From the UHGV virus genome UHGV-0338128: a stretch of 16,784 nucleotides of DNA. One strand, 5' to 3'. This stretch comes from a virus. The number at the start of each line of letters is the position of its first letter. The stretch's first letter is position 1. Shown piece after piece: positions 10,745-16,436 of the stretch. The notes below the pieces were generated by a model. That model had not been told where the DNA came from, did no database searches, and saw nothing but the letters and a program-made list of their open reading frames with translations. A program made the position numbers and the translations under genes.

Positions 10745-11134
10745 TCAGGCGGCTGCACCCGCCGTTTTCTCGTACTTACTGATAGTGATCTCGACCTTCC
10801 CTTCCGGGATAACCGGTCCCCACTCCACCAGCATTCTTTTCACCTGGCTGTCGTCTTCCCACACACCTGCGTGGGTCAGGGCGTCAAACAGCGCCTTGTT
10901 ATAGTTATCCAGATCGCGGATCCTGTTATCCGGAGGAAACAACACGATCTCCACTGAAGCAGGTGCCGACGTTGGTTTCGGCAGACGACGTAACTGCTCA
11001 ACTATTGCTGCGCACGCCGCGCTCTGGAATTTTCGCCCCGCCGCGCTTATCAGGCTCTTACCTGCAAACGCCCCTTTGTTAGGGTGTCGCCAGTAAGTGT
11101 TCACGCTGGGCGGGAAAGGCAGGATAAGCTTCAT
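10745..11134 (-). CDS. rusA: RusA-family Holliday junction resolvase
   Basis: LPFPPSVNTYWRH... and IRDLDNYNKALFDALTHAGVWEDDSQV align with E. coli RusA (LPWPPSNNRYYRH..., [27 protein letters not shown]) as I recall it. ATGA overlap with the upstream gene. Confidence 0.85.
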   Translation of the reverse strand: MKLILPFPPSVNTYWRHPNKGAFAGKSLISAAGRKFQSAACAAIVEQLRRLPKPTSAPASVEIVLFPPDNRIRDLDNYNKALFDALTHAGVWEDDSQVKRMLVEWGPVIPEGKVEITISKYEKTAGAAA

Positions 11135-11457
11135 ACTTTCAGGCCCCTCTCATGTAACCAGTGAGTTGCACGCAGCCTGGCGTTTTCCTCACCGGCAAGC
11201 AGTGCGCGGATAATCCCGGCTGCCTCGCTGTCGTCGTCCTTCACTGTGGTATGAAGCGTGATACCCCGGGCCACGCCACGCTTTATCGTGATGACGCCTT
11301 TTTTCTCCATTGCGCGAAGATGCTCCACCGCTGCATTCACCGAACGGTATCCCAGCATGGCTGCCACCTCCTGATTGGTTGGCGGGAAACCACGTTCTTT
11401 CTGATAAGAAATCAGCATATCCAGCACCTGCTGCTGGCATTGAGTTAACGTCGTCAT
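11131..11457 (-). CDS. LexA N-terminal DNA-binding-domain homolog lacking the S24 peptidase domain (108 aa)
   Basis: From the ATG at 11457: MTTLTQCQQQVLDMLISYQKERGFPPTNQEVAAMLGYRSVNAAVEHLRAMEKKGVITIKRGVARGITL aligns without gaps to E. coli LexA residues 1-69 as I recall them ([68 protein letters not shown]). Only about 39 further residues follow and no Ser/Lys peptidase domain. Start overlaps the upstream stop (TAATG); the ORF track start at 11490 is a GTG. Confidence 0.7.
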   Translation of the reverse strand: MTTLTQCQQQVLDMLISYQKERGFPPTNQEVAAMLGYRSVNAAVEHLRAMEKKGVITIKRGVARGITLHTTVKDDDSEAAGIIRALLAGEENARLRATHWLHERGLKV

Positions 11458-12754: not shown

Positions 12755-12975
12755 GCTGCACCTCCGAGATGCTTCATGTTTTTTCCGGAGCAAAAGGCTA
12801 TAAGCGGCATACTGACGCGGTAATTACGGCCCAGCGGTTCACAAACCACCTTCTGACATTCACGGTCAACCAGGCTAACACGTAGAACATGCCCTGCAGG
12901 CGTGGTGTACCACTGACCCGGACGAGGACAACGGAAAGTCTGATTGGTAAAACGTTTGAAAATATTCCGGATCAT
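12751..12975 (-). CDS. hypothetical small protein (74 aa)
   Basis: ATGA overlaps at both ends (with the Rha stop and the replication-gene start) imply translational coupling within the early operon. Several Cys/His (RCPRPG...RECQKVVCEP). No family recognised. Confidence 0.5.
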   Translation of the reverse strand: MIRNIFKRFTNQTFRCPRPGQWYTTPAGHVLRVSLVDRECQKVVCEPLGRNYRVSMPLIAFCSGKNMKHLGGAA

Positions 12976-14123
12976 TTGCGCCCCCTTACCTCTGAAGGGT
13001 TCAGCGACAAATTTATGAGGCAGGCCAGCGCCGAAGCATCATTAATATAATCATATAAGCTAACAGCCAGCGGAGATTCGGCTTTTGCCAACATAGGATA
13101 AAGCTGCTGCAGCCAGACCTGATGAATTGATGAAATGTAGGAACAGAGAACGCTGGCGTTATGTGCAACGTCGCTCGGTACAGCGGGCTTTGAAAGCTGT
13201 TTCTCCATCTGGTTAAAGGCATTGATATATGCCTCTTTGAACTGGGCAGCACGTTTACCCGTGAAACCCATAGCAAGAAACGCAAAACCGTCGCGTGTGA
13301 TTTGGTAGCAATGAAGTTTGCGACCTGTGCAATCAGTGTAATCACTCACCGAAAAATTGCGGGCAGTGAATGATGCTGAGCATTCAAGCGTGCGGATCTT
13401 TTTCAGTACATCGTCATGACGTTTGGAGAAGAAGTTGGCAACAGCCAGGGATGAAGTAACAACCTGACCATCAACGATGGCAATTTCAGGTTGAGTGAGG
13501 GTTGGGATCGTAGCCATGATGGCAGCCTCTTTGGTGATTTTTAATAACTCACCACCAAGGCTTTCCACGACCTTATTGGTGGTGAGACGTACAGGGGTGG
13601 AAATACCGGTCACCAAAGAACCCGGCCCAACCGAAGTTGGCCCTGCACGCCCCACCATAATTTGGGCGTAATGCTGCTCATGACACAAAAAAACCGCAAG
13701 AGCGCGGTTGTGCGCTTTGGTGAATTCCGGGTTTCCACGCCCGGCCCCCGTTTTATAAGGTGCCTGAACAGTGTAACGTCCCGGAATGGCAGAATCAATG
13801 TGTTGGTGGTCCGTCACACTCAACAAAATCACGCCTGAATTTCCACAAAGGACTAAAGCACTCATGCGGGTAGTCTTTGCGAAGATAGATAACGCGCTGT
13901 GTTTCTGGTTCCCAACGAATAACATGAACATAAAGCCCTCTTCCGTCACGAAACCAGCGGTTAAGTTCCTGCACAACTCGCCCCCCACAGTCAGGTAAAG
14001 TTCTCTGTGGTTACTTACAGCCTGGTGATTTGGTAATCTGCATTCATGCCGTAACAACAGGTGTTCAGAGACGCTGACCACCAGCTGTTGCGACAAACGG
14101 TTATTTGCCGTTAAACTGTTCAT
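12972..14123 (-). CDS. Rha-family phage regulatory protein with about 200-aa N-terminal extension of unknown function
   Basis: C-terminal 181 aa (from MATIPTLTQPEIAIVDGQVVTSSLAVANFFSKRHDDVLKKIRTL...ITRDGFAFLAMGFTGKRAAQFKEAYINAFNQME) match the Rha domain pattern. The frame is open for 202 further codons upstream to an ATG at 14123 that overlaps the CII-like stop (ATGA) and has GGAGA upstream. An internal ATG at 13517 with AAAGAGG SD sits exactly at the Rha domain start. Confidence 0.65.
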   Translation of the reverse strand: MNSLTANNRLSQQLVVSVSEHLLLRHECRLPNHQAVSNHRELYLTVGGELCRNLTAGFVTEEGFMFMLFVGNQKHSALSIFAKTTRMSALVLCGNSGVILLSVTDHQHIDSAIPGRYTVQAPYKTGAGRGNPEFTKAHNRALAVFLCHEQHYAQIMVGRAGPTSVGPGSLVTGISTPVRLTTNKVVESLGGELLKITKEAAIMATIPTLTQPEIAIVDGQVVTSSLAVANFFSKRHDDVLKKIRTLECSASFTARNFSVSDYTDCTGRKLHCYQITRDGFAFLAMGFTGKRAAQFKEAYINAFNQMEKQLSKPAVPSDVAHNASVLCSYISSIHQVWLQQLYPMLAKAESPLAVSLYDYINDASALACLINLSLNPSEVRGRK

Positions 14124-14671
14124 GCGTTAGTTTCTCCACAGACACAAAACGCCACGACGCCCGGAGCTGCACACTCGCGGGCGTCACTCTTTTCTGGAGC
14201 GCAGAAAATTTTGTAGACCAGTGCCGCATGCTCCTGGAGCTTCGAAATCGACAGATACAACTCATCATTAATTGCTGTCTGCTCGTGTGGCTCCACTACC
14301 CCATCTTCGATTGCCGAACGAATCTGCTTTGAGTAACTCCCGATTTGTTCGATGACTTCCAGCAGGCGCTGGTTTATATCGGCGTTCTCTACTTCCTCAA
14401 TTTCAGGAAGCGATACAAACACCCCACCAGCAGACTGTGCGACAGCATCCGCAATGTAGTGAGTGCCAGCAGCGCGCTGTAAAATCATTGCCCATCCCAG
14501 CGGGAAAATCTGATCGCCATCTGCACGAAGGCGGTTGAATAAAGCGTTCTCTGTTACATCCAGCCACTCAGCAGCTTCAGCGTAACCCCCCGGCAACGCC
14601 GCGATAGTTTTTCTGACAGCTTTCACGTACCACTCAGGCTGTTTTTCCACTTTCCAGTGATGCTTACCCAC
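14120..14671 (-). CDS. putative CII-type early regulatory protein (phage 186 CII / CP76-like), 183 aa
   Basis: Occupies the cII position directly after cro. GTG start at 14671 with AGGAG 7 nt upstream. The central segment (ALFNRLRADGDQIFPLGWAMILQRAAGTHYIADAVAQ) loosely resembles phage 186 CII as I recall it. Tentative. Confidence 0.4.
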   Translation of the reverse strand: MGKHHWKVEKQPEWYVKAVRKTIAALPGGYAEAAEWLDVTENALFNRLRADGDQIFPLGWAMILQRAAGTHYIADAVAQSAGGVFVSLPEIEEVENADINQRLLEVIEQIGSYSKQIRSAIEDGVVEPHEQTAINDELYLSISKLQEHAALVYKIFCAPEKSDARECAAPGVVAFCVCGETNA

Positions 14672-14924
14672 GGCTTATCTCCTGTTCCTGTGGTTTAAAC
14701 CCATTCTGGTTTTGGCTAGATTGAAAACGTGCCGGATAAAGAATCTGCATTTCGCTGATTTCACCCTTAAAAAAATTGGCCAGACGTTCTGCAAGCTCGA
14801 TAGATGGAATTTGTTCCAGTCTTTCAATACGACTCAGCGTCGCTGGATTGACCTGAACGCCAGCAGCAACATGCTGCAAAGTAAATCCGTGCGCTTTACG
14901 CACATTCCGTAATGGTGATTGCAT
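14664..14924 (-). CDS. cro: Cro-like HTH (XRE-family) repressor
   Basis: 86-aa ORF divergent from the CI-like gene, with GGAGG SD and an HTH (GFTLQHVAAGVQVNPATLSRIERLEQIPSIELAERLANFF). Confidence 0.8.
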   Translation of the reverse strand: MQSPLRNVRKAHGFTLQHVAAGVQVNPATLSRIERLEQIPSIELAERLANFFKGEISEMQILYPARFQSSQNQNGFKPQEQEISRG

Positions 14925-15021
14925 ATAACCTCCACATATTGCGTGATGAGCATATTATTTCACGCAAATATTTTGCGCAAGTTGATTTGCTTAACGCGCA
15001 ATAAAGAAATGTAATAAACGC
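14925..15021. promoter_or_regulatory. OR-like operator/promoter region between cro and cI (candidate PR and PRM)
   Basis: Repeated TTGC-N7-GCAA-like half-site pairs (TTGCGTGA...TCACGCAA 14939-14967, TTGCGCAA 14973-14980, TTGCTTAACGCGCAA 14987-15001). On the minus strand -35 TTGCGC (plus 14975-14980) and -10 TAATAT (plus 14952-14957) with 17-bp spacing form a candidate PR toward cro. Confidence 0.55.
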
Positions 15022-15714
15022 ATGAACATAGGAAATCGAGTCAGACAACTTCGCCAAGCGAAGAACATGAAAATCGCCGATCTCGCTGAAGCAATAGGAG
15101 TGGATGCGGCAAATATCTCGCGCCTGGAAACAGGTAAGCAGAAACAATTCACTGAACAAGCCCTGAGTAATATTGCCAGGAGCTTAGGTGTTGATATTGC
15201 TGATCTCTTTACCTCAGACTTCAAAAGTAATACTGTATGTAAAAACAGTATTAGTGAGGATGTTGCGCAGGTGAAGGATGTATTCCGTATTGAAATGCTG
15301 GATATCAGTGCCAGTGCGGGAAATGGCCTTATCCAGGGCGGTGATGTCATTGATGTGATTCATGCCATTGAATACAGAACTGATAATGCTGTATCGATGT
15401 TTGGCGGACGGCCAGCAAATCACATTAAAGTAATCAACGTTCGTGGGGACAGTATGTGTCCAACCATTGAGCCAGGAGATCTCATCTTCGTTGATGTCAG
15501 TATCAATCAGTTTGATGGAGATGGTATCTATGTATTTGGTTTTGATGATAAAATTTATGTCAAACGACTGCAAATGATACCTGACAAACTACTGGTGATT
15601 TCTGATAACCAGATTTACCGTGAATGGGGAATTACCAGCGAAAATGAACACCGGTTTATGGTCTTTGGAAAGGTCTTAATCAGCCAGTCACAAACCCTTA
15701 AGCGACACAATTAA
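15022..15714 (+). CDS. cI: CI-like prophage repressor (N-terminal XRE HTH, C-terminal S24 LexA-like autopeptidase)
   Basis: HTH (MKIADLAEAIGVDAANISRLETGKQ), an Ala-Gly candidate cleavage site (SASAGNG), and a peptidase signature (VRGDSMCPTIEPGDLIFVD ... VKRL). Confidence 0.9.
   Translation: MNIGNRVRQLRQAKNMKIADLAEAIGVDAANISRLETGKQKQFTEQALSNIARSLGVDIADLFTSDFKSNTVCKNSISEDVAQVKDVFRIEMLDISASAGNGLIQGGDVIDVIHAIEYRTDNAVSMFGGRPANHIKVINVRGDSMCPTIEPGDLIFVDVSINQFDGDGIYVFGFDDKIYVKRLQMIPDKLLVISDNQIYREWGITSENEHRFMVFGKVLISQSQTLKRHN
15231..15250. promoter_or_regulatory. near-consensus LexA (SOS) box TACTGTATGTAAAAACAGTA inside the cI coding sequence
   Basis: Perfect TACTG-N10-CAGTA with an AT-rich spacer; falls in the linker between the HTH and peptidase domains of the CI-like protein (codons for SNTVCKNSI). 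Confidence 0.45.
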
Positions 15715-15734: not shown

Positions 15735-15756
15735 AGCCACCCGAAGGTGGCTTTTC
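15735..15756 (+). terminator. intrinsic terminator downstream of cI
   Basis: AGCCACC-CGAA-GGTGGCT hairpin (7-bp stem, tetraloop) followed by TTTT, about 20 nt after the cI stop. Confidence 0.6.
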
Positions 15757-15769
15757 ATTACCCATCAAA

Positions 15770-15822
15770 TTGCATATCTCGCAACAAAAACACTTGCATA
15801 ATGCGCAACTTCATTTTATCTT
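15770..15822 (+). promoter_or_regulatory. OL-like operator pair with candidate PL
   Basis: TTGCATATCTCGCAA (15770-15784) and TTGCATAATGCGCAA (15794-15808) share the TTGC-N7-GCAA form of the OR sites. TTGCAT (15794-15799) followed 17 bp later by TATCTT could serve as -35/-10 of a rightward early promoter. Confidence 0.4.
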
Positions 15823-16252
15823 TCTTTCCAGACCAACAAACAAGGTACTAACAAAATTTGGTTGTAACACGGCGTATGGCACATGCGTCGTTAGCGGTCT
15901 GGGGACGTTAAAGGGGACAATCCACTCCTTGCTCGGGCAAACAAACCAGGTAGCCGGAATGTGCAAGTCAATGATGATGCTGATAAGACGCCTAACCAGC
16001 GTGGCGGTTCGGTTTGACACCTGGGAAGAGACCAGGGTGCAACGATGAGGGCATTTATGGAACCGCGACAAAGTGTGGTGCCGTAACTGGCTAAGTGCTC
16101 TCAGCGTTGTGGTGAATGCGCAGGCTGATGCGCGAAAGACATTGCAGCTATTGCGGAAAAGAGCTGTTCGGCGGGGCAATTAAACACCCGTGAGAGTCTG
16201 AAATAACCGCAAGCCGGAGATCAGCACCGGTCACCACAACAGCCACTGCTTT

Positions 16253-16387
16253 GGCGGTACCAGTTTGTACACTTGCTTCCGGCTGGTACCGCTCTTTTTA
16301 CAAAACAGAGAAGAGCATCACCGGACGACGGGCTCATAACCCAATCCATCCGGGCGGCTGCCACCGCAGGTGTTCTTCTCTGTTTTG
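16253..16387 (+). other. structured leader: long-loop hairpin, boxA-like CGCTCTTTTTA, and 14-bp perfect inverted repeat
   Basis: CGGTACCAG (16255-16263) pairs with CTGGTACCG (16283-16291), followed by CGCTCTTTTTA (16290-16300), which resembles boxA (CGCTCTTA / TGCTCTTTAACAA). Then CAAAACAGAGAAGA (16301-16314) is the exact reverse complement of TCTTCTCTGTTTTG (16374-16387). Confidence 0.3.
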
Positions 16388-16436
16388 TGGAGAAACCAAC
16401 CGACCTTGCAGGGTCGATATGATGAGGAGCAGCAAA

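Follow-up and report, generated by a model that had tools for sequence, protein, structure and literature searches.

A conserved LexA operator within the coding sequence of a lambdoid cI repressor gene, with a putative nested promoter and internal start

The virus genome UHGV-0338128 carries a near-consensus LexA (SOS) box inside the coding sequence of its cI repressor gene. We analyzed this site in a 16,784-nucleotide stretch of the genome (the window, below) and in relatives of the gene. The site, its score and its conservation at the DNA level are established here. The reading we favor, with somewhat better than even confidence and from sequence comparison, is that the box would serve as the operator of a LexA-repressed internal promoter, from which an N-terminally truncated cI isoform would be made upon SOS induction. 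The features on which this reading rests are as follows.

15022..15714, + strand: cI repressor gene, 230 amino acids; helix-turn-helix (HTH) domain at residues 3-64, linker, Ala99-Gly100 cleavage site, Peptidase_S24 domain at residues 104-218, Ser144/Lys181 (from the open reading frame (ORF) list, Pfam and motif positions)
15208..15213, + strand: putative -35 element TTTACC, on codons Phe63-Thr64, 17 nucleotides upstream of TACTGT; TTTACN in the family
15231..15250, unstranded: LexA (SOS) box TACTGTATGTAAAAACAGTA, on cI codons 70-77 (N T V C K N S I)
15231..15236, + strand: putative -10 element TACTGT, the first six bases of the LexA box; predicted transcription start site (TSS) at about 15241-15244
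15256..15260, + strand: Shine-Dalgarno (SD)-like GAGGA, upstream of the internal GTG
15271..15714, + strand: putative nested in-frame ORF, from GTG (Val84) to the cI stop, 147 amino acids; short arm, Ala-Gly site, S24 domain

Results and discussion

A high-scoring LexA box in the cI linker

A sequence-only reading of this DNA had placed an SOS box at 15231-15250, within the part of cI that encodes the interdomain linker, and both the sequence and the position are exactly as it described them. The box falls between the regions encoding the HTH domain and the Peptidase_S24 domain as delimited by Pfam, upstream of Ala99-Gly100. Both 5-bp half-sites of TACTGTATGTAAAAACAGTA are perfect and the spacer is AT-rich, fitting the TACTG(TA)5CAGTA palindrome with its CTGT-N8-ACAG core. 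No other exact match to TACTG-N10-CAGTA occurs in the window, where 0.016 would be expected from base composition.

Using a LexA position weight matrix built from 28 E. coli boxes known from the literature, not from a curated file, we obtained 25.1 bits for this site against a background of window composition and 24.9 bits against a uniform background. It ranks third against the 28 training boxes (range 12.5-26.7 bits), with a heterology-index-style value of 2.6, and the runner-up in a scan of the window reaches 10.8 bits. The number of sites scoring at least 24.9 bits expected by chance in a window of equal size is 1.8e-5. The umuDC box, read directly from the MG1655 genome, differs from TACTGTATGTAAAAACAGTA by one spacer base.

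The box is conserved as DNA across the cI family

Homologues of cI were gathered from the species-level genome set, IMG/VR contigs and GenBank phages. A LexA box is found at the same position, with its first base at nucleotide 210 of the gene, in all 126 distinct cI nucleotide variants (about 60-100% protein identity to the window cI), with scores of 17.6-28 bits; in many of these relatives the box is exactly TACTGTATATAAAAACAGTA, the umuDC box. The hosts of box-bearing cI genes include Escherichia, Shigella, Salmonella (ST64B), Citrobacter (phiNP), Klebsiella, Trabulsiella, Buttiauxella and Pseudescherichia. An additional 25, more divergent loci also have the box, at nucleotide 210 or, in the most divergent clade, 207. 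Outside the family, the outgroup repressors examined lack it (PhiR34_1 cI, at 43% identity, and the e14 YmfK/Ayreon cI; best score in the gene, 3 bits). We had considered e14 cohE/YmfK as a K-12 homologue that might link the site to published LexA chromatin immunoprecipitation data and rejected it, as it belongs to a different repressor family (10.5 bits at best in the locus, 3 in the gene); the cI described here is absent from E. coli K-12.

For finer analysis we used 49 representatives with less than 95% nucleotide identity to each other, to which the counts out of 49 and the entropies below refer; they are related, though synonymous change among them is close to saturated (third-position entropy averaging 1.3 bits). 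The ACTGT and CAGT of the box have zero entropy, three third-codon positions included. Thr71 is encoded by ACT and Ser76 by AGT in 49 of 49 genes, and Val72 by GTA in 47. The third base of codon 75 is C in all 49 while the codon specifies Asn, Asp, Ser, Tyr, His, Thr or Pro, and that of codon 70 is T in nearly all (entropy 0.39 bits; C and G also occur) while the residue is Asn, Thr, Ser, Ile, Pro, Phe or Asp. The spacer of the box drifts among A/T-rich variants, and the linker on either side has entropies of 1.2-1.9 bits at all three codon positions. Over the whole cI gene just 8 of 231 third positions are invariant, and only four of the 85 invariant residues other than Met and Trp are encoded by a single codon; two of these four lie in the box. 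The two ends of the palindrome differ, position 1 (T, entropy 0.39) being more conserved than the symmetric position 20 (A/G, 0.93).

Because the synonymous positions of the box are frozen while the encoded and linker residues vary, these comparisons indicate that the box is under strong selection as DNA and not as protein. The sequence-only reading had held that loss of the site in relatives would count against it; what we found is the opposite, with the box kept in every variant and its synonymous positions invariant as residues change. Could the match nevertheless have no function at the DNA level, and be a chance occurrence or a by-product of a conserved peptide motif, T-V-x-x-x-S? Thr71, Val72 and Ser76 are indeed invariant residues. 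Against this stand the very small chance expectation, the freezing of ACT, GTA and AGT at synonymous positions, the retention of the third base in codons 70 and 75 across at least seven residues each, and the placement in the box of two of the four single-codon residues, and we regard it as extremely improbable.

The family is common: this cI allele family is present in 1,040 of 5,426 complete E. coli genomes (19%), and also in Salmonella ST64B, Shigella SfII, Citrobacter rodentium phiNP, Klebsiella prophages and Stx2a-converting phages. One E. coli genome (NZ_CP053231.1, 4118665-4119371) has a cI copy 89.7% identical to the query and 14 nucleotides longer, with no annotated feature, possibly a disrupted allele.

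Host LexA is the likely ligand

The sequence-only reading had coupled the box to a phage-encoded protein with a LexA domain. Such a protein exists:

11131-11457, - strand: phage LexA-like protein, 108 amino acids; PF01726 LexA_DNA_bind, E=2.6e-18, full model matched

Its identity to residues 1-68 of E. coli LexA is 50%, the recognition helix (RSxNAAxEHL) being almost the same, and it consists of the DNA-binding domain only, without a cleavage site or S24 domain. Its gene sits between those for a Dam methylase and RusA, in a nin-like region. During lytic growth the protein could serve as a LexA mimic that is not subject to cleavage, and one may suppose that it is the main ligand of the box: made from the early-right operon and lacking a cleavable C-terminal domain, it would shut off cI, or the internal promoter, irreversibly in lytic growth. 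In favor of this are the protein itself, with its close match to the LexA DNA-binding region, the precedent of a phage homologue of the LexA N-terminal domain with a known regulatory role, GIL01 gp6 (PMC6182141), and the co-occurrence of the protein with box-bearing cI genes in the E. coli/Shigella clade.

That co-occurrence is, however, confined to one mosaic backbone, and the cis site and the trans factor are not inherited together. Among GenBank phages, 41 records have a box-bearing cI and 61 the LexA-like protein, and the two overlap only in the E. coli/Shigella clade (cI identity at least 97%), on the same replication/nin backbone. The box occurs without the protein in Salmonella ST64B-type phages, 18 Klebsiella phages, Citrobacter phiNP and Flotzy/Eeyore, and the protein occurs with a different, box-less cI in cdtI, Stx2c phages, Ayreon, SfIV and SfV. 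The proposed link to the phage mimic thus does not hold as a requirement, and we consider the phage protein an improbable main target partner of the box. Since the box is kept across backgrounds without the phage LexA-like protein, the factor that recognizes it should be one common to all hosts, and host LexA is very probably the binder.

Other strong LexA boxes were seen in related phages. PhiR63_1 has two more at 47707-47754, upstream of a dinI-like gene, and those of Flotzy (2037, 28479 and 29287) lie at a dinI/umuD-like pair, beside the integrase and across the start of a DNA methyltransferase gene.

A putative umuDC-type promoter overlaps the box

A simple scan demanding at least four of six matches per hexamer found no promoter at the box, and we used a matrix-based scan instead, on both strands of the 49 representative loci. 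Exactly three promoter-like positions are common to 46 of the 49: PRM, PR on the opposite strand, and TTTACN-17-TACTGT, whose putative -10 hexamer is the start of the LexA box. No other position occurs in more than 22. The first two are confirmed by TSSs mapped by differential RNA sequencing (dRNA-seq) for the ST64B homologue, SL1344_1967/1966. The PRM -10 element of the window is TGTAAT at 15010-15015, 6 nucleotides ahead of the ATG at 15022, and is predicted in 46 of 49 representatives; two published dRNA-seq tables place the TSS of SL1344_1967 at the first base of its start codon, the A of ATG, and the cI mRNA therefore appears leaderless.

The third position scores 6.3-9.4 bits in the 46 loci. 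The window copy has 7.3 bits, versus 7.6 for TTGATC-17-TACTGT of umuDC; the E. coli umuDC promoter reads TTGATC-17-TACTGTATATAAAAACAGTA in MG1655. TACTGT can serve as a -10 element, because the Salmonella umuD TSS maps 5 nucleotides after its TACTGT in published dRNA-seq data. Within the putative -35 element, the codon for Phe63 is TTT in 49 of 49 genes, making it one of the four single-codon residues among the 85 invariant ones.

The palindromic box also presents TACTGT on the minus strand wherever position 20 is A, and the box could on that account control an antisense promoter directed towards PRM/PR, which would interfere with cI or transcribe cro after SOS induction. Yet no minus-strand site is conserved (22 of 49 at best; near the box, 18 of 49), a -35 element would have to fall in the hypervariable linker, and about 40% of representatives have G at position 20 and so lack T1 of the minus-strand -10 element. 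We judge an antisense role very improbable. Of the two transcripts that the sequence-only reading had left open, internal or antisense, the second finds no conserved promoter, and the first is favored by the conservation of a putative umuDC-type promoter together with an SD and in-frame start downstream.

A putative internal start lies just downstream

In-frame ATG, GTG or TTG codons preceded by an SD of -5 kcal/mol or stronger occur in 100% of representatives within nucleotides 229-303 of the gene; every representative has an SD and an in-frame GTG or ATG placed 20-75 nucleotides beyond the box. Elsewhere in cI the same combination reaches at most 29% in any other 60-nucleotide window, and 0% in the first 200 nucleotides. 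The SD-like motif itself, at the same threshold, occurs between nucleotides 232 and 258 in 92% of representatives; this stretch is hypervariable in amino acid sequence, and the motif is among the two strongest SD peaks of the gene. It is kept as purine-rich nucleotides (GAGGG, GGAG, AAGGA, AGGAGG, GGGGGG) while encoding different residues.

In the window, initiation at the GTG at 15271 would give a 147-residue product, 36% identical to UmuD over 83 amino acids and with a UmuD-like architecture. Gene callers (PGAP and a metagenome caller) do pick internal starts, giving 147 amino acids for P0001 and 144 for P0104, a choice that reflects the SD and not expression. On a metagenome contig (2501-2935, L220) the full-length cI is intact, yet the caller passed over the leaderless ATG in favor of the SD-led start within the gene. 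The internal GTG of this cI family is where public gene calls of 144 and 147 amino acids begin (L220, L223 and L224). We rejected stand-alone homologues of the C-terminal domain as evidence for an isoform, as these short proteins are gene-caller choices on intact genes or on contigs truncated at the 5' end, and do not represent genes of their own. Also rejected was the idea that an upstream anti-SD, ACCTC (in TTTACCTC), masks the internal SD in the PRM mRNA: RNAalifold gave only a trivial hairpin at the box, and the SD has an unpaired probability of 0.28 on the long transcript against 0.43 on the short one, which is not decisive for masking.

A model for an SOS-inducible cI isoform

Taken together, a LexA operator, an internal promoter and a truncated cI form the explanation toward which we lean slightly. 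As long as the lysogen is undamaged, LexA would hold the internal promoter silent, and the leaderless PRM transcript would supply full-length cI. Destruction of LexA by RecA* would allow transcription from the internal promoter to begin at about 15241-15244, giving a short mRNA on which the SD and the in-frame GTG at 15271 would direct synthesis of a 147-residue C-terminal cI protein. Lacking a DNA-binding domain, this isoform would consist of the S24 dimerization/protease domain preceded by a short arm and the Ala-Gly cleavage site. By pairing with intact cI it would produce half-blind heterodimers, and might sharpen induction or commit the prophage to it under heavy damage. The isoform would always match the dimer interface of its own repressor, as every codon is common to both.

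A role as an SOS-inducible, dominant-negative antirepressor is what we tentatively propose for the isoform, although we hold it to be doubtful. It is favored because the dimerization domain is kept, because so strong a box would open only under heavy damage, and because the shared codons guarantee cognate specificity. A decoy or buffer role toward RecA* is an alternative. The broader suggestion of the sequence-only reading, that a box in the weakly constrained linker connects the SOS state of the host to cI expression or to an internal transcript, gains support from the comparative evidence.

The main competing explanation dispenses with the internal promoter and the short protein. LexA bound at +210 would act as a transcriptional roadblock, damping elongation from PRM (and from PRE-type promoters) through cI in undamaged cells; cleavage of LexA would then yield more full-length cI, making cI a member of the SOS regulon, as lexA itself is, and buffering the prophage against brief or weak SOS induction. 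The operator does lie inside the transcribed region, 210 nucleotides downstream of the leaderless PRM start, and it is very strong and invariant. Moreover, OR is crowded with operators, so that an intragenic place for LexA control is plausible, and non-SOS dRNA-seq of SL1344 shows no internal TSS. A roadblock leaves unexplained, however, why an SD and in-frame start follow just downstream in every representative, why TTTACN-17-TACTGT is conserved as consistently as PRM and PR, and why position 1 of the box is more strongly conserved than position 20. More cI during SOS would also oppose induction, and we know of no evidence that LexA is an efficient roadblock. We therefore think it unlikely that this is the principal function, though a roadblock could coexist with the internal promoter.

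Several observations weigh against the model of a LexA-repressed promoter and truncated isoform. The promoter is weak, its -10 element matching TATAAT at three of six positions (T1, A2 and T6), and in 3 of 49 representatives the box begins with C or G, weakening that element further. The -35 element overlaps the conserved Phe-Thr codons, and protein constraint could explain part of its conservation. Both the LexA and the sigma-70 matrices rest on values that were not taken from curated files. Two dRNA-seq tables for S. Typhimurium SL1344, obtained under non-SOS conditions, contain no TSS inside the ST64B cI homologue, which is expected under repression and gives no support; the D23580 supplement has no matching entries. 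At the level of translation, about 60% of representatives have an out-of-frame ATG that overlaps the in-frame GTG, a possible competitor for initiation. The window codon aligned with the main start of the family is GTA, so that initiation would need a different GTG (15271, at an SD spacing of 10 nucleotides). Pausing of translation is another effect that an SD-like motif in a domain linker could have instead. Finally, cI keeps an intact autocleavage site and the catalytic Ser and Lys, and a second route to induction is not strictly needed.

The immunity region

The window is lambdoid prophage DNA, and its segment 14600-16450 matches Escherichia phage PhiR63_1 at 100% identity and mEp460 at about 98%. 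Its immunity region is arranged divergently in the classical manner, with cI on the plus strand facing away from two genes on the minus strand:

14664-14924, - strand: cro
14120-14671, - strand: CII/CP76-like gene

With the Ala99-Gly100 cleavage site, Ser144 and Lys181 all intact, cI looks like an ordinary self-cleaving repressor. Its terminator is at 15735-15752. Between this and a yfdP-like gene (16437 onward) lie some 670 nucleotides (15760-16436) without a convincing ORF, which open with TTGC-N7-GCAA repeats resembling those at OR and are the probable OL/PL. A 25-nucleotide imperfect inverted repeat (16300-16324/16364-16388) falls within this stretch, for which Rfam gave no match; the stretch may be a leader, an antitermination RNA or a small RNA. 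On the minus strand, Rfam matches to the C4 antisense RNA (RF01695, 83.6 bits, 13575-13662) and to isrK (RF01394, 64 bits, 13687-13763) both fall within a long ORF annotated Ash/Rha (12972-14123). The region looks like an RNA-controlled module of the early-right operon, of the P1 immI or Gifsy IsrK type, and the 383-residue Ash/Rha ORF call may be wrong at its 5' end.

Novelty and implications

A literature search retrieved LexA-controlled antirepressors, GIL01, 434 Hex and classifications of Stx-phage CI, with a 'CI without HTH' clade of Stx phages (PMC8951638). Nothing retrieved describes a LexA box within cI, or a nested promoter or isoform there, and nothing relevant was found on LexA and ST64B. 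Both LexA boxes and antirepressors gated by LexA are already known; what is new, as far as our searches show, is an invariant LexA operator within the coding sequence of a self-cleaving cI, with a putative promoter and start of its own. The operator is well established by comparative evidence, and the nested gene is a specific prediction that can be tested.

It is possible, though we would not expect it on present evidence, that enterobacterial prophage repressors of this family (in Stx2a phages, SfII, ST64B, phiNP and many Klebsiella prophages) carry a complete SOS-inducible gene nested in cI and encoding a self-matching antirepressor. If so, the antirepressor would co-evolve automatically with its target, because the two share their codons, and induction would have two SOS inputs, RecA-stimulated cleavage and LexA-gated subunit poisoning. 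A second SOS input would bear on Shiga-toxin release and on antibiotic-triggered prophage activation, since the cI family is common. The box is also a clear example of a regulatory element held by selection at synonymous sites, and a nested gene of this kind can be missed by genome annotation. A handful of synonymous mutations would test the model directly.

Comparison with known systems

The closest parallel is umuDC of E. coli and Salmonella, which has the same or nearly the same box and the same arrangement, with a -35 element 17 nucleotides upstream of a TACTGT that is both -10 element and box start. Its downstream gene, like the predicted nested ORF, codes for a member of the S24 family in which a short N-terminal arm precedes the cleavage site. 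Here, by contrast, a larger gene, encoding a DNA-binding repressor, encloses the putative promoter, the operator, the putative ribosome-binding site and the ORF, all in frame with it, and the predicted product is a repressor isoform, whereas that of umuDC is a polymerase subunit.

In the LexA-controlled antirepressors, Tum of coliphage 186 and GfoA/GfhA of Gifsy-1/-3 (PMC3121763), host LexA, and not autocleavage of the repressor alone, gates a phage protein that could inactivate the prophage repressor after damage, as is proposed here. Each of those antirepressors has a small, separate gene behind an intergenic promoter, and the repressors they act on are not self-cleaving. We found no separate antirepressor gene behind an intergenic LexA promoter in the window, where the only strong LexA box is the one inside cI. 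The candidate is instead the nested C-terminal part of cI itself, whose cleavage site and catalytic residues are intact, and its putative antirepressor activity is suggested by the shared dimerization domain.

The logic of an N-terminally truncated, dominant-negative isoform has a precedent in Tnp/Inh of Tn5, where a second promoter and an in-frame internal start yield a protein without the DNA-binding N-terminus that can poison the full-length protein through mixed oligomers. Tn5 differs in protein family and in regulatory logic; the strong LexA operator is found only here, and the isoform here is a predicted one.

Phage 434 Hex (PMC3564112) is likewise an accessory product that overlaps the repressor gene and modulates RecA-dependent inactivation of the repressor. 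Its ORF is a different one, which overlaps cI at the 3' end and is expressed in the lysogen from the PRM transcript; Hex is not LexA-controlled and stabilizes lysogeny. GIL01 (PMC4551915, PMC6182141), finally, uses host LexA boxes directly in its switch and encodes gp6, a homologue of the LexA N-terminal domain. It has no cI-type repressor and its boxes lie in intergenic promoters, and in the cI family described here the protein with a LexA N-terminal domain is not linked to the box.

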